A DNA stretch of 21,468 bases, from positions 1 to 21,468 of the forward strand of contig JBDRNT010000114.1 in assembly GCA_043810925.1 (NCBI GenBank), in the 5' to 3' direction. The notes beneath the pieces were generated by a model. It was not told the DNA's origin, made no database searches, and saw only the letters and a program-made list of their open reading frames with translations. Source of the DNA: Candidatus Eiseniibacteriota bacterium (GTDB taxonomy: Bacteria; Arandabacterota; Arandabacteria; Arandabacterales; Arandabacteraceae). Below, piece by piece: positions 1,852-21,379 of the stretch. Position 1 is the first letter of the stretch. Each line of letters begins with the position of its first letter. The translations under genes and the position numbers were made by a program.

Positions 1852-1938
1852 GGTCAATACCTCCTCAGGTAAGCGCCGGCCAACGGCTCAACAGACGGGA
1901 GATACACATCTTCACCCGAATAGTCACACTCAAATCCA

Positions 1939-1967
1939 AGTATATCATAATCCGACCCTGGTTTCCA
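1939..1967 (-). promoter_or_regulatory. Putative sigma70 promoter (extended -10) of the M10 gene
   Basis: Minus strand TGGAAA-17 nt-TATACT with TG at the extended -10 position. Confidence 0.5.
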
Positions 1968-2130
1968 GCGGTTTCTGATCATATCCGACCGTTATTGTGA
2001 TGCCTGCTCCGACTTCAGAGTTTCAAAAATGTAGCCTAACTGACAGCAAATTCTGCCAATAATCGGCCATTTATTGCGAGCTTGAGTTGGAAATCTCGGC
2101 GCCGCAGCGGCCCATGTGCCGGAATGACAC

Positions 2131-2159
2131 TTGACCCACGGCCTGTGTGGCTATATCCT
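2131..2159 (+). promoter_or_regulatory. Putative sigma70 promoter of ftcD
   Basis: TTGACC (2131-2136)-17 nt-TATCCT (2154-2159), about 45 nt before the start. Confidence 0.45.
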
Positions 2160-2203
2160 TCAGATAACATACATCATCCGATTGTCCCGACAGACAGGGA
2201 GTA

Positions 2204-3886: not shown

Positions 3887-3941
3887 CAGCGGGGTTCCAC
3901 CCCCGCAGGTCCATAGGTCGGGCACAGAGACCCGACGTTAC
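3883..3941. repeat. REP doublet (inward-facing GTAG-family palindromes) between convergent genes
   Basis: Plus: GTAGCAGCGGGGTTCCACCCCCGCAG. Minus: GTAACGTCGGGTCTCTGTGCCCGACC. Related copies at 4327-4410 and 7834-7941. Confidence 0.7.
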
Positions 3942-3943
3942 CG

Positions 3944-4288
3944 TCAATCCCGGCTGAGGGTTTCCAGGGTCTCATAGGCGTGGCGCAGGTGTGGGATCAC
4001 TATGCTCCCGCCCACGATCAGGGCTACGTTTAAGGCATCATGGATCTCGGCATCCGTATAGCCAGCCTCAGCACACTTTATCAGATGGTAGTCGACACAG
4101 TCATTGCATCGGAGCACGGTTGAAGCCACCAGGCCGAGCAACTCTTTGGTCTTGCCGGGTAGCGCACCGTCTTCATAGGCTGCGGCATCGAGCCTGAAGA
4201 AGCGCTTGATACCCGTGTGATCACCGTCAAGGATCTTCTTATTCATACGCTCGCGCCGCGCGCGAAATTCATCAAGATGTGACGGCAT
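3944..4288 (-). CDS. Carboxymuconolactone decarboxylase/AhpD-like family protein (CxxC)
   Basis: 'GALPGKTKELLGLVASTVLRCNDCVDYH...AEAGYTDAEI'. The start is set at ATG 4288 (MPSHL), which follows GGAAGGAG/AAGGAG; the upstream extension runs through REP DNA. Confidence 0.88.
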   Translation of the reverse strand: MPSHLDEFRARRERMNKKILDGDHTGIKRFFRLDAAAYEDGALPGKTKELLGLVASTVLRCNDCVDYHLIKCAEAGYTDAEIHDALNVALIVGGSIVIPHLRHAYETLETLSRD

Positions 4289-4326
4289 CTCCTTGCTCCT
4301 TCCTACCCGTATAACACCGTCGGACC

Positions 4327-4410
4327 GTGGCATCGCGGTCCCATCCCCGACGTTCTTATCTTCGTCGGGCGCGGAGACCCGATACATCGGGCGCGGAGAC
4401 CCGACGCTAC
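4327..4410. repeat. REP cluster with an internal tandem duplication
   Basis: Plus: GTGGCATCGCGGTCCCATCCCCGACG. Minus: GTAGCGTCGGGTCTCCGCGCCCGA. The 18-mer TCGGGCGCGGAGACCCGA occurs at 4365-4382 and 4387-4404. Confidence 0.72.
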
Positions 4411-4422
4411 AAATGTGCTCTC

Positions 4423-7992: not shown

Positions 7993-10809
7993 TCACTTGA
8001 GGAAGACCGTTCTCCGGGTCTCGCTGTGTCTGCCGGTGTCGAGACGATAGAAATAGACTCCCGATGACACCGCAATCCCCTGGTCGTTGGTACCGTCCCA
8101 CGTGACGCGGTGCTCTCCGGCATCAACACGATCAGAATCAACAAGAACCCTGACCACCCGGCCGGTGACATCATAGACACGAACGCGCACAGATGAAACC
8201 TGTGGTACGGCATACCGGATGAGCGTCGACTGATCGAACGGGTTCGGGTTGCTTTCATCGAGCCGGAGTCCGGGTCCCGACGCTGCGATGTCTCTCACCC
8301 CGGAAATATCGATCTCAATGACCTCGATAAGTTGATCGGCAGCAACAAGTGTTGTGTCGGTTACGACCCCCGAAGGCCAGGTTACCTCGACCGTATCCAC
8401 AGTCTCGAGTTCGCCAAGTCCGAAAGATGCAACCAGCGAGTTCTGCGAGCAATAGCCGGACCCACCTGAAATCTCACGAAACTGGGACAACCCGCCTGCG
8501 ACGATACGAATCCGGGCACCAATGCCGGCCGCATTCGAATAGACACCGGTCAGCTTCACCTTGAGCCAGTGGTTGTCGGGTTGGTACTCATTATGGAAGA
8601 GTCGATTGGTCCCGTCCGAGTTCGCAAGATAGAGATCGACGAGCCCGTCTCCATCGTAATCCGCAAAGGCTGCGCCCCTGCCGTCCCCCTCATCATTCAC
8701 GGGGGCCACCGTTGCCTTGCCGAAGGTACCATCGCCCACGTTCCTGTATGCCTTGTTCTCGCCACCGGTTATGGTGTGATAGATGTCGATGTTGCCGTCG
8801 TTATTGTGATCACCCCAGGCTACACCCTGACCGGCACCGCCGGGACCGATAGGGTTCACAGTGACATCGACAAAGTTTCCAAGTCCGTCGTTACGGAAGA
8901 GCTTATTCGCAGTACCGTTGTTTGCTAAGTAGATATCGATGTCGCCGTCACTATCGTAGTCGGCCCACGCAACGCCCCTGCCGTCATCAGCATCGTTTAG
9001 AGGCGCGGCTGTCACATCCGTGAAGATCCCGCTCCCATCATTCCGGAAGAGCTTGTTGGCCCCATTGTTGGCAAGGTAGATATCAGGATCGCCGTCATCG
9101 TCATAGTCACCCCACGCCATGCCGTAACCGTCCCCCGTATCCCCCAGGGGACCGCTCGTCGCGTCGAAGAAGATACCGGCGTTCATGAGAAGCACGTTGG
9201 CGCCCCCGTTATTGACGACATAGAGGTCGATGTAACCGTCATCGTTATAGTCGGCCCACGCCGCACTCTCGCTGTCGCCCGTATTGCCCACGGGGCCGGC
9301 CGTGACATCCACAAAGGTGCCGCCGCCGTCGTTTCGGAACAGCCTGTTTGCCTGGCCCGAGGTGTTGGTAATATAAAGATCGAGATCGCCGTCGTTATCA
9401 TAGTCACCCCAGCATGCGGCACGTCCATGACCGGTATCACCCAGCGGTCCGCTTGTCACATCGGTGAAACTCCCACCACCGTCATTCCGGAGTAGCTTAT
9501 TGGCAGTCCCGTCATTCACAATGTAGATATCTGGATCGTCGTCGTTGTCGTAGTCACCCCAGGCCACACCGTAGGTCGCACCCGTGTCACCCAGGGGACC
9601 TGCCGTAGCATCAATGAAATCCGCACCGGGTTCGATACCGCAAAGCATGTATTCCACCATGGGATCGCATCCCGACCAGGTGCAATAGAGATTGTCCACG
9701 GCATACCAATCATCCTGGGAACCGGCCCAGCCGTAGTTGAGATGGATATAGGGGGTGCCCGTGTCCATATAGCCGTCGCAGACGATTGAGTGACTGCTGA
9801 TCCTGTAGTGAATGGGCCGCGGCGGACTTGCATCGAGCTCCTCCCTTATCCGGGCAAACCAGGATTCGGCGTCGGGGTAGGCGTTACGATTGTATCGCGT
9901 AACGGTGTTTAAGTACTTGAAGTAGTCGGGGTAGACTGTCTCACCGTAGTAGGTGTAAGTGCCTGAACCGCAGCGTCCGTAGTCCATGTCCCAGGCTATC
10001 CCGACATCGGAGGATAACTGGGCAACGGCGGCCGCCTGCGTAGAATCGTAAAATATATAGAGCCTCTTCATATTCCACCAGTCATACGGGTGATTGAAAT
10101 CTGCACTGAGCGTCTGTCCGGGTGTGCTTCCACCACAGGACTCATCCCCGTTCCAGTAGTATGAATAACTCCCCGTACCGTACGACGGGTGTCTCCAGTA
10201 TCTCATGATCTGAGCACCGGCAGTCGCAACGCATCCGACAACACATCTTCCACCATCTCCCATCGGGCAACTGTCGTTGAGAGGCGCACCCTGGTCCCAC
10301 TTGGTCTTAACAAGCGGGCCCACCGAGTCGATGCTGGTCGGCGCGGGGCCCGATCCAAGCAGCCAGTCCCATTGCTCGCCCACCTTGGCCGGCGCTATCC
10401 CGGTTCCGAGAAGCGGGAAGCTTCCATAACGTTCCTCAATGGCAACGAGCGTATATTCCATGGCGTCCTTGAGGATCTGCCCGTAACCTTCCTCGGCGTC
10501 ATTCTCAAAATCTCCAGTGAAGGAGAAAGACTTCACGGGTGAGAGATCCTTAAGAACGGATACCACGATGTGCCCACCCGGGTGGATCGATAGATGATAC
10601 CCGAGCAAGCGACCATTCTTGGTAAGATCGGTACAGCTTACGATCTCAGGATGCTCCGACGTCCCCCAGCTCCCTCTCATCTCAATCATATAGTCGAGAA
10701 AACCGGCGCCGACCGTCATGGCCTCATCAGAGGTTACCAGGGCCGGGTGAGCCGCTGTGGGAACCAGCACCGCAAGCGCGAGCAGGAAAAGACTGAACTT
10801 AGACCTCAT
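7993..10809 (-). CDS. Secreted C10 (streptopain-like) cysteine protease with prodomain, 7 FG-GAP/VCBS repeats, ASPIC/UnbV and FlgD-Ig domains
   Basis: Signal peptide; 'TKWDQGAP', 'VVGCVATAGAQIMRYW' (Cys at 10231-10233), 'HSIVCDGY' (His at 9790-9792), 'HLNYGW'; repeats 'AWGDYDNDGDxDIY'; ASPIC 'NAAGIGARI...GGSGYCSQNS...FGLG'; tail 'NPNPF...WDGTN...SSGVYFYRL'. Confidence 0.9.
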   Translation of the reverse strand: MRSKFSLFLLALAVLVPTAAHPALVTSDEAMTVGAGFLDYMIEMRGSWGTSEHPEIVSCTDLTKNGRLLGYHLSIHPGGHIVVSVLKDLSPVKSFSFTGDFENDAEEGYGQILKDAMEYTLVAIEERYGSFPLLGTGIAPAKVGEQWDWLLGSGPAPTSIDSVGPLVKTKWDQGAPLNDSCPMGDGGRCVVGCVATAGAQIMRYWRHPSYGTGSYSYYWNGDESCGGSTPGQTLSADFNHPYDWWNMKRLYIFYDSTQAAAVAQLSSDVGIAWDMDYGRCGSGTYTYYGETVYPDYFKYLNTVTRYNRNAYPDAESWFARIREELDASPPRPIHYRISSHSIVCDGYMDTGTPYIHLNYGWAGSQDDWYAVDNLYCTWSGCDPMVEYMLCGIEPGADFIDATAGPLGDTGATYGVAWGDYDNDDDPDIYIVNDGTANKLLRNDGGGSFTDVTSGPLGDTGHGRAACWGDYDNDGDLDLYITNTSGQANRLFRNDGGGTFVDVTAGPVGNTGDSESAAWADYNDDGYIDLYVVNNGGANVLLMNAGIFFDATSGPLGDTGDGYGMAWGDYDDDGDPDIYLANNGANKLFRNDGSGIFTDVTAAPLNDADDGRGVAWADYDSDGDIDIYLANNGTANKLFRNDGLGNFVDVTVNPIGPGGAGQGVAWGDHNNDGNIDIYHTITGGENKAYRNVGDGTFGKATVAPVNDEGDGRGAAFADYDGDGLVDLYLANSDGTNRLFHNEYQPDNHWLKVKLTGVYSNAAGIGARIRIVAGGLSQFREISGGSGYCSQNSLVASFGLGELETVDTVEVTWPSGVVTDTTLVAADQLIEVIEIDISGVRDIAASGPGLRLDESNPNPFDQSTLIRYAVPQVSSVRVRVYDVTGRVVRVLVDSDRVDAGEHRVTWDGTNDQGIAVSSGVYFYRLDTGRHSETRRTVFLK
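8590..9620 (-). repeat. Seven intragenic FG-GAP/VCBS repeats of about 50 aa (predicted Ca-binding beta-propeller)
   Basis: Seven units of the form GPLGDTG..G.AW(G/A)DYDNDGD.D(I/L)Y..N...N.L.RNDG.G.F.DVT, counted in the translation. Boundaries are approximate. Confidence 0.85.
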
Positions 10810-10851
10810 GATGTTTTACCCCTTCCCTTCGGATGTACCTGTACAATATAT

Positions 10852-10880
10852 ATTATACCATAATTCCGAGGAGGTTTCAA
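10852..10880 (-). promoter_or_regulatory. sigma70 promoter of the C10 gene
   Basis: Minus strand TTGAAA-17 nt-TATAAT with extended TG (TGGTATAAT), 42 nt upstream of the ATG. Confidence 0.75.
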
Positions 10881-10953
10881 ACACGACGGGGCGCTGGGTG
10901 GTGTATCAATTTGGGTGTCGACGCCAGGGAAGGGTTTGAATGAAAACCGATAA

Positions 10954-11010
10954 TGTGTACACTCGTGACACCGCCAACGGTGTGCGGAAAAGTGTGGGCG
11001 TTTTTCACAC
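10954..11010. promoter_or_regulatory. Putative enhancer boxes for a sigma54 activator (TGTG-N9-[C/G]ACAC x2)
   Basis: TGTG-TACACTCGT-GACAC (10954) and TGTG-GGCGTTTTT-CACAC (10993), about 95-150 nt upstream of a -24/-12 site. Confidence 0.55.
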
Positions 11011-11103
11011 ATTCGAATATTGCCGGGGCGTGAGATGCTCCGGTGGGGATCGCCATATGGTTTGCATACGGCCAGTTAGAGCTGTCGCGGCGCTGCTGAG
11101 GTG

Positions 11104-11119
11104 TGGCACACCGCTTGCG
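11104..11119 (+). promoter_or_regulatory. sigma54 (-24/-12) promoter
   Basis: TGGCAC-ACCGC-TTGCG matches the consensus TGGCAC-N5-TTGC, upstream of an operon that encodes a sigma54 activator. Confidence 0.72.
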
Positions 11120-11133
11120 TATCAAGGAGGATC

Positions 11134-12621
11134 ATGAGGCTACTGTTGCCAAATACCCTCACCTTGGTGGCTGCTGTTCTGCTGCTCCCGGGGCTCCTTG
11201 CCGCAGGACCACTGAGGCTTGACGCCGGTGAACCTGTCCTCGTGTCTGGCGGATCGATGGGTCAAGACGAGACGGTTTCTGCTACCTCCGGCTCAAGACC
11301 CAGGGCGCTTTATCTCGAGAAGATCATTGTCACGGGGAACAGGCGCTTTACGGATGTGGAAATCCTCGATGCGGTTCAACTGTTCCCCCGAGACGTGATC
11401 AATGTCGAGATGCTGGAGCGGGAGCGTGTCCGCCTGCTGGCCGCCTATCCCGGTCTCTTTGATGTGAGACTCTTCACCCGTCCGGGATCGAGCCGCGGAC
11501 AGGTGATCGTGGAAATCGAGATTGTGGAAAGGAAGACCTTCTCACTTGAGACCGGTTACGGGTACCACGATCTCAACGGGTGGTTTCTAACGCTCATCGG
11601 CCTTCGCTTTGAGGATCTCTTCCACACCGATACCCAGCTCAGGCTCGGGTTCCGTTACGGCTTTAACCTGGTCCGAGTTGACGCGGAGTGGGAAAGGCCC
11701 GCTCCTCGTGACGGTGGGCTTGGCTGGAACGTGAGACTGTATGTGCTGAGCGAGGACCGCCGTTTCTTTGGAAGCGGCGCCCCGGAGGATCCCGCGGCAG
11801 GCGATACGGCCGGCTATGCCTGGGACGGATCCGGATGGAACGAATTCCGGCAGAAGATCGAGCGAAGCGGTGGAGAGGTCTCAGCGCTTTACCGTCTGGG
11901 CGACACGCACTTCTCATTCGGAGCCAGGGCCCAATCAGTACGGCCGGACAGCACGTTTCAGGACGTGGAACGGGACAGTGAGCGTGAGATCGAGGATCTT
12001 CCCGATGTGCTCCAGGGGGATGCCGACAAGACCGTCATCACCGGTCTCTTCTTCAGGATGACCCGCGACACACGTGATCACGTCGTCTACCCTCGCTCCG
12101 GATCATTCGCCCTTCTTTCGTTGGAGGCCAACAACACCATTCTCGGCGGTGACGAGATCTTCACACGTACCGTACTGGACTTGAGGAAACTTGCTCACCT
12201 CGGGGGTGACCGTGTGCTTTCGGGGAGGCTCAATGCCGGCATCACCACCTCGGGTACACCATACTACGAGCGCTTTACACTCGGCGGTATTTACTCAATC
12301 CGCGGCTTCAGGGAGCTGAGCCTATCGCCAACCGCCGGAGATGATGGCTTCTGGATGGCGAGCTGCGAACTGCGTTTTCCTCTTATCGGATCTCTTGAGG
12401 CTCCCCCGCGCCTATCGGGGCTGGTCTTCGTCGACGCCGGACAGGGGTGGCAGCGCGGCAGTGCGTTCTCAACAGCTGATATCGAGTCGGCCGCCGGCTA
12501 TGGAGTCCGACTCAGACTGCCATGGCTCGGGATGCTGGGACTCGACGCGGGTATACCGTTTTCGCCGGGACGAACCGGGGACAACTTTCGGATTCACGGA
12601 TCGTTGGGATTCTCGTTCTAA
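11134..12621 (+). CDS. Omp85/BamA-TamA family outer-membrane protein with a single POTRA domain
   Basis: Signal peptide; POTRA 'LEKIIVTGNRRF...VIVEIEIVER'; barrel motifs 'DHVVYPRSG', 'LGGIYSIRGF', 'FVDAG', 'GYGVR'; C-terminal 'GSLGFSF'. AAGGAGG precedes ATG 11134. Confidence 0.88.
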   Translation: MRLLLPNTLTLVAAVLLLPGLLAAGPLRLDAGEPVLVSGGSMGQDETVSATSGSRPRALYLEKIIVTGNRRFTDVEILDAVQLFPRDVINVEMLERERVRLLAAYPGLFDVRLFTRPGSSRGQVIVEIEIVERKTFSLETGYGYHDLNGWFLTLIGLRFEDLFHTDTQLRLGFRYGFNLVRVDAEWERPAPRDGGLGWNVRLYVLSEDRRFFGSGAPEDPAAGDTAGYAWDGSGWNEFRQKIERSGGEVSALYRLGDTHFSFGARAQSVRPDSTFQDVERDSEREIEDLPDVLQGDADKTVITGLFFRMTRDTRDHVVYPRSGSFALLSLEANNTILGGDEIFTRTVLDLRKLAHLGGDRVLSGRLNAGITTSGTPYYERFTLGGIYSIRGFRELSLSPTAGDDGFWMASCELRFPLIGSLEAPPRLSGLVFVDAGQGWQRGSAFSTADIESAAGYGVRLRLPWLGMLGLDAGIPFSPGRTGDNFRIHGSLGFSF

Positions 12622-12641
12622 CGATCCAGCAGGTGAGAGTA

Positions 12642-13322
12642 GTGGCAACAGTCAGACGCACTATATTGATATGTCTGGCCGGGCTGTGTTTAACCGCAAT
12701 GGTTCGCACGGCTCGCGCCGAAGACGAAGTGCGACCTGCCGTCGTCCGGATCGATCTCTACGCCCGTGACGGTCAACTGACCGGCGACATCACTGCACAT
12801 GGCCTCTTTTCAGAGCGGATTGTCGGCACTGTTCAGAGCGGTCTCCCGGCCGTAGTGGAGGTGTTTTACCTCGTTGCGGAACCCGGTGGCGGCACCGTAG
12901 AAAAAGGGGTGCACTCCTACTCGCTCAAGTACGATATATGGGATGATACCTATTCGGTCACCGGGCAGGATTCAACGGTGTTCTTGCCGTCACTCGAAGC
13001 CATGCGCTCTATGATCGAACAGATGACGGGCCTCGCCCTGGTGCCTCTCGGGAGGATGCACGCAGGCCGTTCTCACTATGTTCAGTTGAGTATCGCTGTA
13101 AGTCCGCTTCGGGGCAGCGACAAGAGACGAATGACCGGATGGATCAGCGAGAATGTACGAAGCACGGGGGAAGCTTCCTGGCACGAGCAGGTACTTGATG
13201 TGAATGACCTCATAACTCACTTCTTCTCCAGGGAAAAGGACACGGCAAAGACAACCGATTGGTTTCGCTCACCGCCCTTTAAGCCTGAGCTTCTTCCTTC
13301 TCGTGACACGGAGGAAAGGTAA
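12642..13322 (+). CDS. Exported DUF4390-like protein
   Basis: Signal peptide (RRTILICLAGLCLTAMVRTARA), 'VQSGLP', 'YSLKYDIWDDTY', C-terminal 'TDWF'. Its stop overlaps the kinase start (TAATG). The GTG start at 12642 or 12633 is uncertain. Confidence 0.65.
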   Translation: MATVRRTILICLAGLCLTAMVRTARAEDEVRPAVVRIDLYARDGQLTGDITAHGLFSERIVGTVQSGLPAVVEVFYLVAEPGGGTVEKGVHSYSLKYDIWDDTYSVTGQDSTVFLPSLEAMRSMIEQMTGLALVPLGRMHAGRSHYVQLSIAVSPLRGSDKRRMTGWISENVRSTGEASWHEQVLDVNDLITHFFSREKDTAKTTDWFRSPPFKPELLPSRDTEER

Positions 13323-14929
13323 TGTCGATCCGGTATCGTCTCATCGCGATGTGTTTCGTTGTCGCGCTGGTCCCTGCCATTCCTCTTTCCATCCTTGTCA
13401 GCAATCTGCTTGAGAAGAGCTTCAATGTCGGGCTCAGCAAGACCATGGAAGACGCTCTCGAAAGCGGGATGACCGTATCGCGAAAGCACCTCGAAGATCT
13501 TCATCTCGCCTTTGAAGCGAAGACCGCCAGGGTGACCGCGCTCCTGTCCGGCACCGTCCCGGATTCATCCCTGGTGGCGGCGGCTCTCTCGGTTGGGGAT
13601 CGATCGCATGGGATCGACGGCTTCATCATCCGAAGCGAAATGCGAAGCGAAATACAACAAGATGGCCGGTCGGGTTCAGCGGCCCCGTTTCCCGGGGCGC
13701 TGTCAGGTTATTCAAACGAACCGGTTTTGACGGGTCTTGTCGGCGGGTCTGCCGTCGGCGAACGCAGGCCGTCCACGAATTCCAGCGCGGACCTTGTCTT
13801 TTATGAGACCGAAGACAGGGCGGTCCAGCTTGCGCTCTGGTCTCCGGATGGCGGCGCCGGCTCAGTGCTTTTCTACAAAGAGGCAGACCCGGAGTTCTTG
13901 GCGCACGCCGAGAAGCTCCTTCTCGGACGCCAGGTCTTTGCCCAGCTCCGCCTCGCCCAGGAGCGGCTGAATCGAAGTTTCTTCTATCCGTTCATAATTG
14001 TCTACGCAGTTATCCTGTTACTCTCCCTGGCCTTCGCCTTCTTGATGTCCGAGCGGCTGGCCCGGCCCATCAGGCGGCTCGTGGATGCGACATCCGCCGT
14101 GGCGCGGGGTGATTGGCGCATACAGATAAAGCGGGAGGCCGGGGGAGAGATCGGCACTCTCGTGGACAGTTTCAACCAGATGGTCAGCCGTCTTGACACC
14201 CAGCGGCGCAGACTGAGTGATCTGGAGAAGATGGCCTCATGGAGAGAGGTCGGCCGCCATCTTGCGCATGAGATCAAGAACCCGCTGCTACCGATACGGC
14301 TCACCGTGCAGGAAATGAAAGACCAGTACACCGGCGACGACGAGCGCTACGGCGCGCTCCTCAGCGAATCGGTGCGTGTGGTGGAGGATGAGCTGAGTCA
14401 CCTCCAGAAACTCGTGAAGGAGTTCTCATCATTTGCCAGGATGCCGGGACTCTCGCCCGTTCAGGGGTCCATTGCGGATCTGGCGAAGGACGTTTCCCTG
14501 CTTTACCCGCAGATCAAAACCACTATTGACGCAGAGCAGGGGCTACCGCGATCTGTTTTTGATCCGGACCAGCTCAGGCGCGTTTTGATCAACCTCTTTG
14601 ACAACTCGCTCTCCGTGTTTGCCTCCGGACACCAGGGGAGGATTCAAATGCGCATCAGAAGCGAGGGCGACACCATGGTTCTCAGGTTCGCCGATAACGG
14701 ACCGGGGATACCGGCTGAGAACATTTCGAAGATCTTCGATCCCTATTTCTCAACTCGAAAAGGGGGAACCGGTCTTGGGCTTGCGATGGTGAAAAACATC
14801 ATCCTGCTCCACGAAGGGACGATAGAGGCGACGGGTCGCGAGAACGAGGGTGCCTCCTTCACCATAACGCTTCCCGCTCGAGGTCCATCGGGGAAGGCGG
14901 TCAATGACGACGGATTCTCCAACTTGTAG
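13322..14929 (+). CDS. NtrY-like HAMP sensor histidine kinase
   Basis: Two TM segments, HAMP 'LARPIRRL...GEIGTLVDSFNQM', H-box 'WREVGRHLAHEIKNPLLPIRL', N-box 'VLINLFDNS', G1 'DNGPG', F 'IFDPYFST', G2 'GTGLGL'. Confidence 0.92.
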   Translation: MSIRYRLIAMCFVVALVPAIPLSILVSNLLEKSFNVGLSKTMEDALESGMTVSRKHLEDLHLAFEAKTARVTALLSGTVPDSSLVAAALSVGDRSHGIDGFIIRSEMRSEIQQDGRSGSAAPFPGALSGYSNEPVLTGLVGGSAVGERRPSTNSSADLVFYETEDRAVQLALWSPDGGAGSVLFYKEADPEFLAHAEKLLLGRQVFAQLRLAQERLNRSFFYPFIIVYAVILLLSLAFAFLMSERLARPIRRLVDATSAVARGDWRIQIKREAGGEIGTLVDSFNQMVSRLDTQRRRLSDLEKMASWREVGRHLAHEIKNPLLPIRLTVQEMKDQYTGDDERYGALLSESVRVVEDELSHLQKLVKEFSSFARMPGLSPVQGSIADLAKDVSLLYPQIKTTIDAEQGLPRSVFDPDQLRRVLINLFDNSLSVFASGHQGRIQMRIRSEGDTMVLRFADNGPGIPAENISKIFDPYFSTRKGGTGLGLAMVKNIILLHEGTIEATGRENEGASFTITLPARGPSGKAVNDDGFSNL

Positions 14930-14959
14930 GATCAACATTTCGACAAGGAGTCTGCGCGT

Positions 14960-16363
14960 ATGGTCAAGCGAGTACTGATCATAGACGACGAGCCCAATAT
15001 CCGGAAGACCATGGAGATGATCCATAGAAACAGCGGGTGGAACACCGCCTCTGTCGAGAGCGGAGCCGCCGCCCTTGAACTCCTGCAGACCGAGCGCTTC
15101 GATCTGGTCTATCTCGACCTGGCCATGCCGGACCGCGATGGCATAGACGTGCTCAAAGATATCAAGCTGCGCTTCCCGGATCAGATGATCGTCATACTGA
15201 CCGGTCAGGCAACGATTGAGAAAGCGGTTGAGGCAACCAGGCTGGGGGCATTCGATTTTCTCGAAAAAGACTGCGGCAAGGAGAAGATCCTGCTGACTTC
15301 GAAGAACGCGCTCGAACACCGCTCACTTGCCGATGAAAACCGGCGACTGCGTGACAAGATCTCAAAGCGCCATGAGTTCCTCGGAAAGAGCAGAGACCAC
15401 GAGGAAATACTCGGGCAGATCGCCAAGGTAGCTCCCACCAATGCGCGTGTTCTCATCTTCGGCGAATCGGGTACAGGCAAGGAGCTCGTCGCCAGGGAGA
15501 TTCACCGGCGCAGCAAGCGAGCACGAACACCCTTTGTCCAGGTGAACTGTGCCGCGATCCCCGAGGAACTGATCGAGGCGGAGCTCTTCGGGAGCGTCAA
15601 GGGCGCATTCACGGGCTCGGTGGCGTCACGCGAAGGCAAGTTCCAGGCGGCAGACGGAGGCACCATCTTTCTTGATGAAGTCGGAGACATGAGTCTTCGC
15701 GTCCAGACCAAAGTGCTTCGTGCGCTCCAGGAGGGCGAGATCCAGCGAGTCGGCAGCGATGAGGTCGTCACGGTCGATGTCCGTGTTCTCGCCGCCACGA
15801 ATAAGGACCTCAAGGAGGAGATCGCAGCCGGCCGTTTCAGGGAGGACCTCTTTTTCCGCCTGAATGTCGTGCCGATCACCGCCATGCCCTTAAGAGCGCA
15901 TCCGGAGGATATCCCTCTGCTCGCCGATGCCTTCGTAAAATCATACTGTGCGGAAAACGGCCTGCCGGAGAAGCGTCTGGACGAGAGGGTTGTGGATCTC
16001 CTTAAGACTTACCAATGGCCCGGAAATGTCCGGGAACTCAAGAACCAGGTGGAACGTCTCGTTATCATGTCCCCGGCAAGAACGGTACATGTTGAGGATT
16101 TGAGCTCCGAGATCCGCCGCGGAAAGTCCTCGGCTCCCGCCCGGGAACCGGCGGATGATTCGTCCGGAGAGCCAGAGACCGAGATTCCCGCAGGAGCGTT
16201 GACCCTGCAGGAGGCCAAGAAGGAGCTCGAACGCAGGATGATCCTCGAGTCGCTTCAGCGAAACGGCTGGAATGTGACGCGCACAGCCGGGGAACTCGGG
16301 CTGGAGCGAACGACGCTGCATAAGAAGATCAAGTCCCACGATCTCGAGAAGGAACAAGCGTGA
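14960..16363 (+). CDS. sigma54-dependent response regulator (NtrX/NtrC family; REC-AAA+-Fis HTH)
   Basis: REC 'LIIDDE...LDLAMP', Walker A 'GESGTGKE', 'GAFTGS', 'FLDEVGDM', 'RFREDLFFRLNV', 'WPGNVREL', HTH 'NVTRTAGELGLERTTLHKK'. Confidence 0.95.
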   Translation: MVKRVLIIDDEPNIRKTMEMIHRNSGWNTASVESGAAALELLQTERFDLVYLDLAMPDRDGIDVLKDIKLRFPDQMIVILTGQATIEKAVEATRLGAFDFLEKDCGKEKILLTSKNALEHRSLADENRRLRDKISKRHEFLGKSRDHEEILGQIAKVAPTNARVLIFGESGTGKELVAREIHRRSKRARTPFVQVNCAAIPEELIEAELFGSVKGAFTGSVASREGKFQAADGGTIFLDEVGDMSLRVQTKVLRALQEGEIQRVGSDEVVTVDVRVLAATNKDLKEEIAAGRFREDLFFRLNVVPITAMPLRAHPEDIPLLADAFVKSYCAENGLPEKRLDERVVDLLKTYQWPGNVRELKNQVERLVIMSPARTVHVEDLSSEIRRGKSSAPAREPADDSSGEPETEIPAGALTLQEAKKELERRMILESLQRNGWNVTRTAGELGLERTTLHKKIKSHDLEKEQA

Positions 16364-16394
16364 ATGGTGGTTACACTGTGAAGAGAGACCACAC
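16359..16394. promoter_or_regulatory. Putative tandem enhancer boxes
   Basis: CGTG-AATGGTGGT-TACAC followed directly by TGTG-AAGAGAGAC-CACAC, about 110 nt upstream of the 16503 site. Confidence 0.5.
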
Positions 16395-16502
16395 GAAAAC
16401 GATCGCGGCCGTTCTGCTATCCGGGAATATGGCATGTCTGTATCAGATATAGAAGCAAGGGGTTACGTCATTCGAATGGATTCTGATCGTCCGGGCCGGT
16501 TC

Positions 16503-16518
16503 TGGCACCTTTATTGTA
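16503..16518 (+). promoter_or_regulatory. Putative sigma54 promoter (variant -12)
   Basis: TGGCAC-CTTTA-TTGTA: correct spacing, with GT in place of GC at -12. Confidence 0.5.
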
Positions 16519-16576
16519 ATAAGGTTGACTGGAGCGACAAAACGCACTTGGAAACCGCATAGAAAGGACGTGCCCG

Positions 16577-17227
16577 ATGTTTACGTTTAGAGCCAGACGA
16601 TCAGGCCACCGGACCACGCCGGAAGTGGTCGCCGCAGTCACCTTGTTCCTGCTCTCGGTTCTCGCTGCCGGAGCCGCTGCAGAAAATCCCGAGGATGAAA
16701 AGGGGTTCTATCTCGGTCTGAAGCTCATGGGATCTTCGCTTCACGCCGACAACACGACCGACGCTGATGAGGTCTTATACATAAAGGATGACGGCGGCGG
16801 GGTGCAGCTTGATTTCGGCTACCGCTTCAACCGGACTTTCATGCTTGAGTTTTGCGTCGGTGGCGCGAACCACGAGACATCCGACCCTGCGATAGACGCC
16901 CGGTTCGAGGTGTTCCAGATTTTCGGATACTACCGCTTCTCACCGGAACGCGCCTTTCGCCCATACCTGAAGGGCGGGTTTGGCGGCTACGGGCTGTATG
17001 TCGAAGAGGGCCCGGTCAACTGGCGAATCAAGGGGGGCGGTGTCGCATTAGGGGGAGGTTTCAGGTACTTCTTCGCGCCCTATTTCTGCATGGGCCTCGA
17101 CTTCACCCACAATATCATCCAGTATGATACCGCCGCGATGGAAGTCGAAGGTTTCAGCTATGAATGGGCGATCGACGAGCATGGCGCAATGACATCGCTC
17201 GGAGTGACATTCGGGTATTCCTTCTGA
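16577..17227 (+). CDS. Outer-membrane beta-barrel protein (8-stranded OmpA/OmpW-like)
   Basis: Signal peptide ending AAA; amphipathic strands 'GFYLGL', 'FGYRFN', 'RPYLKGGFG', 'GGGFRYFF'; C-terminal 'GVTFGYSF'; AAAGGA RBS. Confidence 0.85.
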   Translation: MFTFRARRSGHRTTPEVVAAVTLFLLSVLAAGAAAENPEDEKGFYLGLKLMGSSLHADNTTDADEVLYIKDDGGGVQLDFGYRFNRTFMLEFCVGGANHETSDPAIDARFEVFQIFGYYRFSPERAFRPYLKGGFGGYGLYVEEGPVNWRIKGGGVALGGGFRYFFAPYFCMGLDFTHNIIQYDTAAMEVEGFSYEWAIDEHGAMTSLGVTFGYSF

Positions 17228-17239
17228 CCGCACTTTTCA

Positions 17240-17279
17240 CCGCGGGTTCTTTATGGCGAAGACCCGCGGCGTTTCTTTA
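17240..17279 (+). terminator. Probable intrinsic terminator
   Basis: CCGCGGGTTCTT...AAGACCCGCGG stem followed by GTTTCTTT. Confidence 0.6.
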
Positions 17280-17289
17280 TCTCCACACC

Positions 17290-17384
17290 TGTGATTTCCG
17301 GCCACACTTTTCACACATCACCCGAAGTCGTAACTCCTGTAATCGCAAGCGATTGCATGATCATGGCCTGGCACGATACCTGCG
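17290..17384 (+). promoter_or_regulatory. Enhancer box plus sigma54 promoter of the lipoprotein gene
   Basis: TGTG-ATTTCCGGC-CACAC (17290-17307) and TGGCAC-GATAC-CTGCG (17369-17384, GG-N10-GC). Confidence 0.6.
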
Positions 17385-17444
17385 TATACACAGCCATGAA
17401 ATGGTTGGAGACACGGTCCCTGGTTAACCGAAGGAGGTTTGGTC

Positions 17445-18335
17445 ATGAGAAAGCGTTGGTTGGCACTGCCAGTTGCGGTCCTTTTAGTCTTCGTGTCTTT
17501 TACCGGTTGTTCAATGGAGGACACCGGCGGTTCCCCGGGGGTACCCACACCACCTGAGCTTCCGTCCATCTCAACGATGACGATGAACACGTCGCTCTTC
17601 CAGTCGTCTGAGGTGGATACGGAAACTCTTGCACTCAGTGGATACGGCCAGGCCGGGGCAATGCTGGGCCTGGGGTCGAAACTCAATTTCTTCAACGCGG
17701 CCACCCGCGTGCTTTTCCTCGACCTCGTCATTCTTGTGGGCGCAGTACAGCCCGTCGCAGCATTTGCCCTTGCCGGCCAGTCCATACCACAACCCCAGGG
17801 TGACGGTTCGTGGCTCTGGACATATATATTCGTAGACCAAGAGGGCGAACACAGCATCTTCCTTTACGGGAAGAACATGGGGACCTATACTGAGTGGAGG
17901 ATGGAAGTTTCGAGTACGGAAGCGCCGGCGCCTACCGATCACTTTCTGTGGTTCGAGGGTGAGGTGCAGCAGGACCAATGTTCAGGCTACTGGCAATTCT
18001 ACAGACCCGTGGAGGAGCTCGCCGCGGGTGCCACTGACATGCTTGCCTCGCCCGGCATTCAGTGCATCAGGATTGACTGGGAGCACCGCGAAGGTGACGA
18101 GCAGGAACTCGCTTTTCTCCTCAATGAACCCGGCGCACCCTGGGAAGGATCAACCCTCATATTCTCAGAAACACCGGCGGTCTCATCGGTCGACTTCTTC
18201 GATTCATCAATTAGTGACGGCGGAGTCATCACGTGGTATCCGGACTGCTCCGGTTCGATAGAGTGGTTTGACTACAGAGATGGCGAGAAACAATGCTGGG
18301 ACAGCCTTCACGATGACACGGTGTGCCCTGAATAA
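17445..18335 (+). CDS. Lipoprotein of unknown function
   Basis: MRKRWLALPVAVLLVFVSFTG|C lipobox; AAGGAGG 7 nt before ATG 17445; Pro/Gly linker; beta-rich acidic body; C-terminal C-x8-C pair. Confidence 0.8.
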   Translation: MRKRWLALPVAVLLVFVSFTGCSMEDTGGSPGVPTPPELPSISTMTMNTSLFQSSEVDTETLALSGYGQAGAMLGLGSKLNFFNAATRVLFLDLVILVGAVQPVAAFALAGQSIPQPQGDGSWLWTYIFVDQEGEHSIFLYGKNMGTYTEWRMEVSSTEAPAPTDHFLWFEGEVQQDQCSGYWQFYRPVEELAAGATDMLASPGIQCIRIDWEHREGDEQELAFLLNEPGAPWEGSTLIFSETPAVSSVDFFDSSISDGGVITWYPDCSGSIEWFDYRDGEKQCWDSLHDDTVCPE

Positions 18336-18351
18336 GATTCGCGAAGATAAG

Positions 18352-18380
18352 AGGAGGCGGTTTCTTAGAAACCGTCTCCT
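18352..18380. terminator. Hairpin between convergent genes (probable terminator)
   Basis: AGGAGGCGGTTTC-TTA-GAAACCGTCTCCT, a 13-bp stem with one G-U pair. Confidence 0.6.
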
Positions 18381-18381
18381 T

Positions 18382-18453
18382 CCTGATCAGCGAAGCTCAC
18401 CTGCCCCTATGATGCGCAGTGGAATAGCGGTCAGGTGCAGTGCCTTGTTAAGC
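18382..18453 (-). mobile_element. Integron attC site (72 nt) with a non-canonical R' end
   Basis: Minus strand: R'' GCTTAAC, AAGGC, L'' ACTGCACC, TGACCGCTAT...ATAGGGGCA, L' GGTGAGC, TTCGCT, then G|ATCAGG. It has RYYYAAC, 5/6-nt spacers, an extra base in L'' and a second unpaired base (TG-A-CC), and starts right after the stop codon. Confidence 0.8.
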
Positions 18454-19209
18454 CTACTGGCGCTTCTTGAAATACAAAATAACCCCTAATTCACCGCCAT
18501 GATTTGTATACTCGAAATAGCACTCACATACATTGGATTGCTGCATTACGAGGAAGAGCCTGTTCAGATTGTAACTATTCATTTGCATTTGTGGTGCGAC
18601 AAACTCCCTTCCTTTTATCAAATTCACGAAGTTCTTTGCTAACGGAACATTGTTCTTAACTAGTGATACTAATTTCCTTATTCTGTGAACCTTGGCATAT
18701 GTAAAATGAACAACACAAATACCCCCATCTTCCAGATGATCTATGAGATTCTTGAAAATCCGTTCTCCTCTTGGTACAGGAATATGCTGAAAGACGATAA
18801 ATGAATGTATGAAGTCATACTTACCGGTTAGTGACGAAAGGTTGTCGTCGGATTTAACAAGGATTACATTCTTAATGGAGCGAGTTTCACAGTTCTTCTT
18901 GGCCTCATCTAACATCGAATCAGAAACATCAACACCAGTAACTGTTTCTGCGACATCCGATAGAGGAATAACCAGCCTCCCAACTCCACACCCAAAATCC
19001 AATGCTTGCTTGATCGTGAAGGTTGGGTCGATGTGCTCCCGGCTTTTTGTACAGATGGTATCAATATATACATATCCGGATCTGAAGAAATCTTCCCTAT
19101 TCTCATCTGTCAGATTACGTTCTCGGAATTTGTCATCCGAAATAACACTAAAATACGGATCGTCCCTTCCGAATTTCTCCCATTCTCTGTCCGTGCTACC
19201 GTTGAACAT
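18454..19209 (-). CDS. Class I SAM-dependent methyltransferase (integron cassette gene)
   Basis: 'ALDFGCGVGRL', 'VTGVDVSDSML', 'YDFIHSFIVFQH', 'LEDGG'; visibly AT-richer than its neighbours. Start is ATG 19209 or GTG 19215. Confidence 0.9.
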   Translation of the reverse strand: MFNGSTDREWEKFGRDDPYFSVISDDKFRERNLTDENREDFFRSGYVYIDTICTKSREHIDPTFTIKQALDFGCGVGRLVIPLSDVAETVTGVDVSDSMLDEAKKNCETRSIKNVILVKSDDNLSSLTGKYDFIHSFIVFQHIPVPRGERIFKNLIDHLEDGGICVVHFTYAKVHRIRKLVSLVKNNVPLAKNFVNLIKGREFVAPQMQMNSYNLNRLFLVMQQSNVCECYFEYTNHGGELGVILYFKKRQ

Positions 19210-19311
19210 CTTCACCTTCTTCTGTTGGGTTTAATCGCGGGCATAAACCGATCCTATCCTGCCGTTGTTACTAATAACTCGGACTCGATATGCCAGATCA
19301 CGGAACCGTTG

Positions 19312-19437
19312 TCAAACGTCTGTTTTGCATCCCAAGTTTTGCTGAACGAGGGAACCGGCGCGGGCTTTCTCACCGGGATCACCCTTCATGAGGACGGTAG
19401 CAGCCAGCACCAGGAGGGATTTCATAGGTACTTTCAT
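19312..19437 (-). pseudogene. Possible truncated remnant of an exported-protein gene, or a small ORF (41 aa)
   Basis: GGAG RBS and ATG 19437, signal-like start MKVPMKSLLVLAATVL, early stop, and a consensus promoter upstream. Confidence 0.3.
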
Positions 19438-19480
19438 AACGCGACTCCCTGTAATTATCTGGAACGTTCCTCGCTGTTCG

Positions 19481-19509
19481 AGAATACGCCTTTCCCTTGA
19501 GGATGTCAA
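19481..19509 (-). promoter_or_regulatory. Near-consensus sigma70 promoter pointing toward the cassette
   Basis: Minus strand TTGACA (19509-19504)-17 nt-TATTCT (19486-19481). Confidence 0.65.
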
Positions 19510-19540
19510 TATTGATAGCTCGGATCATCCTTCCGGCACC

Positions 19541-19569
19541 TTGAAATTAGGAATCCTATGATGTAGACT
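19541..19569 (+). promoter_or_regulatory. Putative sigma70 promoter of the GT-C-like gene
   Basis: TTGAAA-17 nt-TAGACT. Confidence 0.55.
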
Positions 19570-19627
19570 CCGGTGCGTGGATTTATCCTGTTCCGGTAGT
19601 ACTTGACGGTTTCAGCGGTAGGATCCG

Positions 19628-21379
19628 GTGGACTCAAATAAGATCACAAGGGCGATTTCACTCCTTGCATTCTACGGGATTGCGTTCGTGGTTTTCACCT
19701 ATCCCCTGGTGCTCGAGTTCGACGACGCGTTTATCTCAGATGGTAGTGACGGGTGCCAGTTTGTCTGGAACATATATAACTTCACCGACAATCTCGAGCA
19801 CTCGAAGCCCCTCTTTTACACGGACAAACTCTACTATCCGATTGGAAGCTCACTCATCCTCCATGTCTATGCGCCCGTATTCAGCATAGTCGGCCTGCTC
19901 GTTGGGAATCCCGTGCTTGCCCTCAACATTACCGTCGCCTTGAGCTTCGTCTTCTCCGGTATCGGGGCGTATCTCCTCTGCAATCACTATGTCCGTAACC
20001 GGCTCCTTTCAGCCCTGGCAGGTTTTGTCTTTGCGTACTGTCCCTACAAGTTGCTTCACATATACGGCCATTACGATCTCATGCTCACGGCCACGATACC
20101 GTTCTTCATACTCTTCTTCGTGAAGTCGCTCAAGGGAATCGATGGCGGACGACGGCTCCGCCTGGTTGACCGGCGAAGCCTCATCCTCGCACTCGTCATG
20201 CTTGCGGTTACCTACTTTTCAAGCTACTACTACACCTTCTTCCTCATTATATTCGTACTCCTTTACGTTTTCTATTTCACTCTTAAGATCTACGCCTTCC
20301 GGCTGTTCACGCGAAGAAACCTCATCTACGGTCTCGGCATCATACTTGTCTCCACCGCAATCGTAGCCATCTTCGAGCGGCTTGGTCTCGACAGGGACGG
20401 CATTGCAAGAAACGGTCTTGGCCGGAGCGCCGATGTGCTGGCCTTCTTTGTACCGTCGGCGTCCAGCCGGTTCCTCGCATCGGGCCCTGTGCGGCATATC
20501 AGATTCGAAGTGATCCGGGCAAATGAGGCTGAAAGCACAGTCTATATCGGTTATGCAATCCTCGTATTCGCCGCCGGTTATTTTTTCAAGCGACAATATC
20601 GCGGCCAAAGTGCCGAAGCAAAGGTGCTGCCCTTCATGACGGGTTGCTTCATGGTACTCGCAATGCCGCTCGTGCTTGTGGCAGACAGGATAGTATGCGC
20701 ACTGCCGTCTGCTCTCATACACTACATCCCGTTCGTCAACAACTTCAGGGTCCCTTATCGATATACGATCATGATCATGCTGTTTCTTCCGATCCTGGCC
20801 GGCCTCTTTATAAAGAGGTGGATCTGGGATGCAATTCCGAGGCGACTCCATCTCGTCTTAATAGCAGCGCTTGTTGTTATCCTTTCCCTGGAATATATGC
20901 AGCAGCCCTTCCCCATGGTTTCAAGAAGTGAAGTGCCGGAGGTGTATGAGTATCTTGCCACGCAACCCGACGGGGTGCTGCTTGAGATTCCTTTCGGCCT
21001 TAGAGACGGCTTCCGTGAGATCGGGGACGAGCAATCGATACAGATATTCTACCAGACCGTCCACCATAAGAAGATCCTCGGCGGAGTGCTGTCACGGCCG
21101 CGCAGGGAGATATTCGAATTCTTCATGACCGAGCCCGTCGTCTCGGATCTCATCAGGATGCAGGAAGACGAGACCTGGGATCCGGAGTTACCGGGCCCTG
21201 AGGGCATGTCAAAATTCCTCAAGACCTTTAGCCCCCGCTATGTGCTGATACACCCTGAATACAGGGAGAGCCGCACCGGGCACTTCGTTGAAGCGATGTT
21301 CTCCGGTCACGTCTCGGACACAAAGGACGTTGACGGATTCCTGCTGATGACCATAGAATTGCCTGGCACCGGCTATTAG
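19628..21379 (+). CDS. Polytopic membrane protein, probable GT-C-fold glycosyltransferase (YfhO/PMT-like)
   Basis: Many TM helices, acidic first loop 'SDGSDGCQFVWN', 'LYYPIG', 'AGFVFAYCPY', 'FRVPYR', and a C-terminal extracytoplasmic domain 'LLEIP...QTVHHKKILGG'. Confidence 0.7.
   Translation: MDSNKITRAISLLAFYGIAFVVFTYPLVLEFDDAFISDGSDGCQFVWNIYNFTDNLEHSKPLFYTDKLYYPIGSSLILHVYAPVFSIVGLLVGNPVLALNITVALSFVFSGIGAYLLCNHYVRNRLLSALAGFVFAYCPYKLLHIYGHYDLMLTATIPFFILFFVKSLKGIDGGRRLRLVDRRSLILALVMLAVTYFSSYYYTFFLIIFVLLYVFYFTLKIYAFRLFTRRNLIYGLGIILVSTAIVAIFERLGLDRDGIARNGLGRSADVLAFFVPSASSRFLASGPVRHIRFEVIRANEAESTVYIGYAILVFAAGYFFKRQYRGQSAEAKVLPFMTGCFMVLAMPLVLVADRIVCALPSALIHYIPFVNNFRVPYRYTIMIMLFLPILAGLFIKRWIWDAIPRRLHLVLIAALVVILSLEYMQQPFPMVSRSEVPEVYEYLATQPDGVLLEIPFGLRDGFREIGDEQSIQIFYQTVHHKKILGGVLSRPRREIFEFFMTEPVVSDLIRMQEDETWDPELPGPEGMSKFLKTFSPRYVLIHPEYRESRTGHFVEAMFSGHVSDTKDVDGFLLMTIELPGTGY

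Follow-up and report, generated by a model that had tools for sequence, protein, structure and literature searches.

A candidate sigma-54 envelope module with an Omp85-DUF4390 gene pair, kept in Eisenbacteria and allied phyla

The 21,468-base stretch analysed here, called the window throughout, is the whole of contig C114 (JBDRNT010000114.1) of a Candidatus Eiseniibacteriota metagenome-assembled genome (3.85 Mb, 91.7% complete). Between positions 10,954 and 18,335 it carries six plus-strand genes, encoding an Omp85 protein, an exported DUF4390 protein, a sensor histidine kinase, a sigma-54 activator, a small outer-membrane protein (OMP) and a lipoprotein. A preliminary description, made from the sequence, had proposed that these genes form a self-contained, autoregulated sigma-54 regulon of envelope proteins in three units, each behind a -24/-12 site. 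The features are listed below, with the evidence in brackets (nt, nucleotides).

10989..11011, - strand: upstream activator site of P1, dyad GTGTGAA-N7-CACAC, about 112 nt before the -24 element
11104..11118, + strand: sigma-54 promoter P1, TGGCACaccgcTTGC (exact consensus)
11134..12621, + strand: Omp85 protein, 495 residues (PF01103; POTRA, PF07244)
12642..13322, + strand: DUF4390 (PlrP-like) exported protein, 226 residues (PF14334, hhalign, fold)
13322..14929, + strand: sensor histidine kinase (Pfam, alignment)
14960..16363, + strand: NtrC-class sigma-54 activator (PF00158, motifs)
16357..16397, + strand: two tandem upstream activator sites of P2, GTGAA-N8-yACAC twice (matrix; position kept in orthologues)
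16503..16517, + strand: sigma-54 promoter P2, TGGCACctttaTTGT (one mismatch, TTGT at -12)
16577..17227, + strand: small outer-membrane beta-barrel protein, 216 residues (PF13505)
17240..17279, + strand: hairpin followed by a T-rich tail, likely the intrinsic terminator of the P2 unit (predicted folding energy)
17283..17317, + strand: upstream activator sites of P3, CCACACCTGTGATTTCCGGCCACAC then TTTTCACACA (alignment; regular-expression match at -78)
17369..17383, + strand: sigma-54 promoter P3, TGGCACgatacCTGC (one mismatch, CTGC at -12)
17445..18335, + strand: lipoprotein of an unnamed family (lipobox, 228 homologues)

A search of the window for TGGCAC-N5-TTGC with at most one mismatch gave exactly three matches (11104, 16503 and 17369), all on the plus strand, all intergenic and one ahead of each unit, in agreement with the proposed layout. 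P1 has no mismatch to the consensus, and P2 and P3 have one each, in the -12 element. Three or more matches were also reached in 10 of 100 shuffles of the window, and the number by itself is therefore not rare; because of this, the case for sigma-54 rests on the placement and conservation of the sites. No sigma-70-like site was found ahead of any of the three units. The genome encodes the rpoN that the proposal called for (contig C37, 207 bits), and PF00158 matches it at 23 places, about 18 of them full-length.

Conservation of the sites was assessed in orthologous loci, drawn from at least four named candidate phyla. A site was present ahead of the Omp85 gene in all 19 loci that hold the start of that gene, ahead of the small OMP gene in 22 of 24 loci and ahead of the lipoprotein gene in 18 of 24. 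The two loci without P2 have activator-OMP gaps of only 25-100 nt, and the six without P3 have OMP-lipoprotein gaps of only about 50-110 nt, as expected if the OMP and lipoprotein genes are co-transcribed there. Throughout the orthologues the -12 element of P2 reads TTGT/A/G. When both strands of 19 orthologous loci (329,111 bases) were scanned, 42 of the 49 sites scoring at least 9 out of 10 fell at the three promoter positions and 7 elsewhere. A short gap after a sigma-54 site at C161:117913 was discarded as an artefact of open reading frame (ORF) calling.

Sigma-54 transcription begins about 12 nt after the -12 C. For P1, with this C at 11118 and the Omp85 ATG at 11134, the predicted 5' untranslated region is about 4 nt long. 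The ATG follows the -12 TTGC at 13-17 nt in 13 of the 19 loci, and in one further locus the start codon at this distance is TTG or GTG, so that the Omp85 mRNA leader would measure only 2-6 nt. The remaining five loci, which form a single subgroup, carry GGAGGTG right at the predicted 5' end of P1, with the start 26-29 nt downstream of the -12 element. The basic residues just after the Omp85 ATG are conserved, which indicates that the start codon is sound. P1 abuts the Omp85 start codon, and the mRNA is thus probably almost leaderless. A look-up of sequencing runs matching the stretch listed one DNA run, with 5% of its words, and no RNA run. The predicted leaders of P2 (about 48 nt) and P3 (about 50 nt, carrying GAAGGAGG) both have Shine-Dalgarno sequences. 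The hairpin after the small OMP gene has a folding energy of -18.9 kcal/mol (z -2.57) and is kept in the second copy of the module on contig C23, described below, and at G007 and L027.

One dyad, GTGTGAA-N7-yACAC, is common to all three promoter regions. It lies about 112 nt before P1 on the opposite strand, about 145 and about 125 nt before P2, the first of these copies overlapping the activator stop codon, and about 78 nt before P3, where CACACCTGTG and CCACAC are invariant in a four-way alignment. In most of the 19 loci the dyad ahead of the Omp85 gene keeps its position, as do those of P2 in orthologues. A weight matrix was built from 16 Omp85 promoters taken from other genomes only and was scanned over the 3.85 Mb. 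Its best two hits genome-wide were the Omp85 promoters of C23 (32.6 bits) and of the window (20.1 bits), and its fifth-best was the small-OMP promoter of C23; the two P2 dyads scored 10.0 and 11.3 bits. With the top hits on the two Omp85 promoters, the regulon looks closed, and the location of the activator gene behind P1 implies positive autoregulation. These sequence features make it very probable that the module is positively autoregulated by a two-component system of its own, acting through one operator at three sigma-54 promoters, and the claim of a self-contained regulon thus held up well. As both paralogous modules carry the same motif, cross-talk between the window and C23 copies is possible.

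The C23 copy comprises all six genes (8102-15520, minus strand; 55-77% protein identity) and repeats the three sigma-54 sites and the dyad of the module in the window. Its orthologues are the copies found in sister genera, and the window copy represents a separate lineage, its kinase being 65-66% identical to all of them. The order Omp85-DUF4390-kinase-activator had been set as a test of the proposal, and we examined it with two baits. Using the lipoprotein family (228 homologues), one genome per species was scanned and the genes were located by tblastn, which gave 42 loci. The full order Omp85, DUF4390, kinase, sigma-54 activator, small OMP, lipoprotein was present in 17 of these, from records labelled Eisenbacteria, Krumholzibacteriota, Latescibacterota, Zixiibacteriota and 'Ignavibacteriales'. 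Five more were consistent with it and cut at a contig end, one had the OMP and lipoprotein genes 9.5 kb apart and one had a divergent layout; the others held the lipoprotein gene alone with room upstream (nine), lay at contig edges (four) or held only distant lipoprotein relatives (five). The DUF4390 alignment, used as the second bait, recovered 40 metagenome loci, and an Omp85 gene stood directly upstream of the DUF4390 gene in all 38 that had room for one.

The DUF4390 gene starts with a GTG 20 nt past the Omp85 stop codon (an ATG at 12522 was considered as the start and rejected), and its TAA stop overlaps the kinase ATG (TAATG). This 1-nt overlap recurs in 11 of 16 orthologues, according to a tally of coordinates, and in every window-type locus (type B hereafter) the DUF4390 gene is directly 5' of the kinase gene. 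The window protein itself falls just below the gathering cut-off of PF14334 (24.5 bits against 27; E 2.1e-5), which the G007 orthologue exceeds (27.3 bits), and the model matches all 15 orthologues at E <= 0.01 (best 2.7e-8). In hhalign against eight DUF4390 proteins of the phylum, of which two were Pfam-scanned and both were above the cut-off, the probability was 98.8% (E 7.7e-17). The Atlas model of the protein gave a TM score of 0.76 to a proteobacterial DUF4390 cluster; a search by sequence gave no solved relative (best E-value 0.09). On sequence grounds, then, the protein is a divergent homologue of PlrP.

PlrP provides the first genetic role for a DUF4390 protein. In Wolber et al. 2026 (PMC13001219), it is described as a periplasmic protein of Bordetella whose gene overlaps plrS, and the genetics suggests that it restrains the phosphatase activity of the kinase PlrS via the periplasmic PDC domain. 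According to the same authors, DUF4390 occurs in the beta-, gamma- and zeta-proteobacteria and in Magnetococcia. The link between DUF4390 and the kinase that the preliminary description had drawn agrees with these genetics, and we regard a role of the window protein as a PlrP-like co-sensor as reasonably likely. Among the papers listed in literature searches, no description of an Omp85-DUF4390 module was found, the supplements of PMC13001219, which may cover DUF4390 neighbourhoods in non-Proteobacteria, lying outside those searches.

The kinase consists of a first transmembrane helix, a periplasmic domain of about 190 residues, a second transmembrane helix, HAMP (residues 243-292), HisKA (309-374, with the H-box LAHEIKNPL) and HATPase. 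The closest solved kinase core is that of ZraS (9jfj, E 1.2e-40). In the model of the periplasmic domain (predicted local distance difference test, pLDDT, 85), the order helix, alpha/beta core, helix fits PDC/Cache. A VIA-align search with this sensor domain gave a match limited to two long helices, forming a helical hairpin. The activator has a receiver domain (REC, D53), an AAA+ domain (PF00158, 236 bits) with GESGTGKE and GAFTGS, and HTH_8, so that the first unit does encode a sigma-54 activator, as claimed. The sigma-54 loop (GAFTGS or GAYTGS/A) and the Walker A motif are kept in all 18 activator orthologues.

The pair had been called NtrY/NtrX-like. The NtrY architecture has HAMP plus PAS before HisKA; Pfam detected no PAS domain in the window kinase, and no NtrY model appeared among the best 25 of its 89 NCBIfam matches. 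The best NCBIfam models for the activator were AtoC, then NtrC, then NtrX, all scoring below their cut-offs (407.9 bits against 600 for the NtrX equivalog NF051870). The ZraS and ZraR models likewise gave 123.6 bits against 479 and 364.2 against 760. Because neither protein reaches any NCBIfam cut-off, the NtrY/NtrX names fail, and the label can be kept only in a loose sense.

The envelope proteins were largely as predicted, with Pfam and alignments bearing out the one-POTRA Omp85, the exported DUF4390-like protein, the OMP barrel and the lipoprotein. The Omp85 protein has a signal peptide, one POTRA domain separated from it by only about 35 residues, a 16-strand-type barrel, the loop-6 motif IRGF and the terminal residues GFSF, and conserved motifs are visible in an alignment. 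It scores 119.8 bits with PF01103 (cut-off 24) and 22.7 bits with the POTRA model PF07244 (cut-off 21.3). The BamA model TIGR03303 gave 111.6 bits against a cut-off of 297, matching only model positions 322-741 (POTRA5 and barrel); a full BamA is encoded elsewhere in the genome (contig C104, 467 bits). The window protein is, by these sequence comparisons, an accessory paralogue.

The small OMP matches PF13505 (OMP_b-brl; 55 bits against a cut-off of 28.7), ends in GYSF and is kept in the cluster. The lipoprotein has a signal peptide with the lipobox SFTGC, whose Cys22 is invariant in all 32 aligned homologues, and is predicted to be lipidated. Across its 228 homologues no Pfam domain was detected. 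In the model (pLDDT 81), a disordered linker and one long hydrophobic helix are followed by a 12-strand antiparallel beta meander, with a C-terminal cysteine pair. Foldseek returned only OspA for this fold (TM score about 0.27), and VIA-align, run over 48,161 chains, matched barrel walls and OspA at Z <= 8.7, described as its usual noise level, so that neither search gave a convincing structural relative. Kin clusters in the Atlas come from Gemmatimonadota, Bacteroidota and Balneolota.

Related loci elsewhere in the phylum suggested how this arrangement may have arisen. A canonical DUF4390 gene, above the PF14334 cut-off, was found in 12 of 17 other genomes of the phylum. Four loci analysed by Pfam or tblastn share an order that we call type A: HAMP-SpoIIE phosphatase, kinase, sigma-54 activator, large Omp85, DUF4390. 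A PF14334 search found no such locus in the present genome, which is 91.7% complete. Type A and the window share the same four kinds of protein, the domain layout of the kinase and a sigma-54 promoter ahead of the Omp85-DUF4390 pair: a perfect TGGCAC-N5-TTGC stands between the activator and Omp85 genes in six of six type-A loci. The two types differ in gene order, such that the type-A regulators are not behind the promoter, and in the Omp85 protein, which in type A is large, with bactofilin-like and CBM48 domains before the barrel and no recognisable POTRA. Type-A loci also have a different upstream palindrome (GTGTC-N5-6-GACAC) and the phosphatase gene upstream, and a TPR gene replaces the small OMP and lipoprotein genes, of which no window-like examples were found there. 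Loci L017, L018, L020, L022, L023 and L024 have rlmN at the start and, after DUF4390, the gene for the TPR protein and an unknown gene. A third, divergent layout was seen on metagenome contigs (L100-L103) and at L061, with Omp85, DUF4390, about 650 nt of extra DNA, kinase and activator. This layout has no small OMP or lipoprotein gene; at L061 a distant lipoprotein relative faces the cluster from the other strand.

In a quick tree, the activators of type A, of the window's type and of the third type fell into one clade together with an orphan activator of this genome on contig C124 (SH-aLRT 97). The shared clade and the site before the type-A Omp85-DUF4390 pair suggest that 'activator, sigma-54 promoter, Omp85-DUF4390' is the old core. 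By comparison of these sequences, the window type would thus have moved its regulators behind the promoter and gained two further promoters.

From these genes, promoters, dyads, synteny and homologies we infer a mechanism that would involve activation at the dyads, control of the kinase by DUF4390, contact between Omp85 and DUF4390 and a signal from the outer membrane. The phosphorylated activator would bind GTGTGAA-N7-yACAC upstream of the three -24/-12 promoters, of which P1 would drive omp85-duf4390-kinase-activator, P2 the small outer-membrane barrel and P3 the lipoprotein. The kinase would sense via its periplasmic domain, and the DUF4390 protein, presumably translationally coupled to it, would most likely tune its kinase/phosphatase balance from the periplasm. 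The likeliest outer-membrane partner of DUF4390 would be the one-POTRA Omp85 protein, through which the kinase may be informed of the condition of the outer membrane or of how barrel assembly is proceeding. Omp85 might also insert or display the small OMP or the lipoprotein, as the preliminary description suggested. We hold with modest confidence the reading as a whole, that is, a closed, positively autoregulated sigma-54 regulon with its own two-component system, DUF4390 tuning the kinase and Omp85 as partner of DUF4390. Taken by itself, the partnership of Omp85 with DUF4390 is possible, with the balance somewhat against it. The full relay, in which Omp85 would hold DUF4390 or let it go in response to the condition of the outer membrane or of the barrel-assembly process and DUF4390 would set the kinase/phosphatase balance, is a more doubtful proposition.

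We considered whether structure prediction could lend credit to the idea, put forward in the preliminary description, that Omp85 signals through DUF4390 to the kinase. In a three-chain job, DUF4390 (residues 27-226) was scored as the partner of Omp85 (24-495) and the kinase sensor domain (28-222). The score was 0.48 (runs 0.49, 0.48 and 0.40), obtained with three chains and custom alignments, unlike in the calibration. The runs agreed in at least 59% of contacts, with a partner pLDDT of at least 68. Of 157 solved complexes, 116 reached the calibration mark, as did 2 of 215 mismatched pairs; at scores of at most 0.60, only 18 of the 157 did so, together with both of the passing mismatches. In the controls, replacing the partner gave 0.00 and 0.00, and replacing Omp85 gave 0.16. 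The predictions suggest, weakly, that how confidently the model places DUF4390 depends on Omp85, and we take this as a lead and not as a result. The proposed signalling through DUF4390 gained some slight credit from the three-chain fold.

Several observations weigh against the mechanism. In the range that includes a score of 0.48, predictions are, according to the tool, wrong more often than they are correct, except where the contact was already probable, and DUF4390 with the kinase sensor reached only 0.16 when Omp85 was replaced. Fold searches did not bear out the PDC fold of the sensor, Foldseek giving a best E of 0.04 and nothing at E <= 0.001. A start 12 nt after the -12 C of P1 would leave AAGGAGG (11124-11130), an apparent ribosome-binding site, untranscribed, and P2 has TTGT instead of TTGC. 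The G+C content of C23 is 54.2%, against 56.2 +/- 0.9% for the genome (2.2 standard deviations below), so that the 'paralogue' could be a mis-binned contig of a relative. The orphan activator on C124, which adjoins Na/Pi-PhoU and methyltransferase genes in a locus that is not of type A, groups inside the clade of DUF4390-linked activators.

The main rival to the proposed mechanism keeps the regulon and removes Omp85 from the sensing. Omp85 would be a stress-induced auxiliary foldase, like BamK under BaeSR, co-induced with the small OMP and the lipoprotein for outer-membrane repair or remodelling, and DUF4390 would act on the kinase alone. There is a precedent in Klebsiella, where BaeSR is reported to activate the BamA paralogue bamK (PMC13059784). 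The window Omp85 retains the hallmarks of a foldase (POTRA, RGF loop, terminal aromatic residue), the housekeeping BamA is encoded elsewhere in the genome, and the regulon includes both a barrel client and a lipoprotein. Yet such a model does not account well for the strictness of the Omp85-DUF4390 adjacency (38 of 38), which holds also in type-A loci, where bactofilin-like and CBM48 domains replace a recognisable POTRA and no window-like small OMP or lipoprotein genes were found, and the fall of the complex score from 0.48 to 0.16 upon replacement of Omp85, weak as its support is, points the same way. We judge this explanation rather unlikely.

A second rival makes the one-POTRA Omp85 a dedicated transporter, of either the two-partner or the surface-lipoprotein type, that would bring DUF4390 or the lipoprotein to the cell surface. 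TpsB proteins carry two POTRA domains, and only one is present here. The ShlB/FhaC model PF03865 does match (30.4 bits against 22.7), with PF01103 scoring far higher; its match is confined to residues 374-471 and covers only 88 of 311 model positions. The Omp85 gene does adjoin a gene for an exported protein, and the lipoprotein bears a weak likeness in fold to OspA, a surface lipoprotein, though its matches to OspA and to barrel walls stay within the noise mentioned above. Furthermore, a DUF4390 protein at the surface could not act on the kinase as the PlrP genetics suggests (PMC13001219). Export of this kind therefore appears improbable. Finally, it is very improbable that the -24/-12 matches are not working promoters, that the six genes are read from ordinary ones and that the motif is conserved for another cause, since the loss of the ribosome-binding site from a P1 transcript and the shuffles that also reached three matches are set against position-specific conservation across phyla, matching dyads upstream, the lack of sigma-70-like sites ahead of the three units and the absence of P3, in line with operon logic, from loci with an OMP-lipoprotein gap of about 50 nt.

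The proposed mechanism can be compared with three known systems. ZraP-ZraS-ZraR is a sigma-54-dependent, autoregulated envelope stress system whose periplasmic accessory protein is both output and modulator. The window system resembles it in being sigma-54-linked and putatively autoregulated, in having an accessory periplasmic protein that would be output and modulator at once and in its kinase core, which among solved structures is nearest to ZraS. It differs in that the accessory protein is DUF4390 and not ZraP, in missing the ZraS and ZraR cut-offs and in having Omp85, small OMP and lipoprotein genes in the unit. PlrP-PlrS-PlrR of Bordetella, of the NtrYX family, is described in PMC13001219 as having an exported DUF4390 gene directly 5' of the kinase gene and overlapping it, an NtrC-class regulator next and a periplasmic sensor domain between two transmembrane helices of the kinase, all of which applies to the window. 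In contrast to PlrS, the window kinase has neither PAS nor an NtrY-type N-terminus, and its regulator keeps a working-type sigma-54 loop, with -24/-12 promoters present. The upstream position taken by rsmB in Bordetella is filled here by an Omp85 gene, the predicted regulon includes a small OMP and a lipoprotein, and the window type occurs in Eisenbacteria and allied candidate phyla, not in Proteobacteria. In BaeSR-bamK (PMC13059784), an envelope two-component system likewise switches on an accessory Omp85-family protein, with the housekeeping BamA encoded elsewhere; bamK, however, is not known to be linked to a DUF4390 gene or to sigma-54, whereas the window Omp85 has one POTRA and is encoded in the same operon as the regulators.

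No seventh conserved gene was found in the flanks of the module; only large FG-GAP/T9SS-type proteins recur (6 of 19 flanks; T9SS, type IX secretion system). In the window, the divergent neighbour at 7993-10809 (minus strand) encodes a 938-residue secreted protein that combines a C10 peptidase domain with FG-GAP repeats, ASPIC/UnbV and a C-terminal sorting domain of the T9SS type, and is preceded by a sigma-70-like site at 10880-10852; a large FG-GAP protein is likewise encoded upstream of the C23 copy and of some of the orthologous clusters. Further upstream lie genes for an M10 metalloprotease with a T9SS sorting domain (190-1857, minus strand), a fused formiminotransferase-cyclodeaminase (2204-3886, plus strand) and an S46 dipeptidyl-peptidase (4423-6618, minus strand). 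The genes from 190 to 6618 form a neighbourhood of protein and amino-acid catabolism that is unrelated to the six-gene module. On the other side, the G+C content drops to 47-52% over 18000-21379. A 583-residue ORF there (19628-21379), which matched nothing in Pfam or NCBIfam, has partial copies on contigs C19 and C110 with 80-92% identity, suggesting a repeated, possibly mobile gene.

The Omp85-DUF4390 pair under a sigma-54 two-component system offers a candidate partner for DUF4390, together with a small regulon and defined DNA sites. If the relay through Omp85 and DUF4390 is false, what remains is a tidy, widely kept, stress-inducible BamA paralogue together with its clients. If it is true, it would be a new kind of signalling from the outer to the inner membrane and a new job for an Omp85 protein. 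DUF4390 would then be a general trans-envelope adaptor, and proteobacterial PlrP would either work with an Omp85 encoded at an unlinked site or have parted from this partner altogether. The arrangement is kept in several little-known phyla and gives a hint of a hitherto undescribed means by which cells may monitor the condition of their outer membrane.

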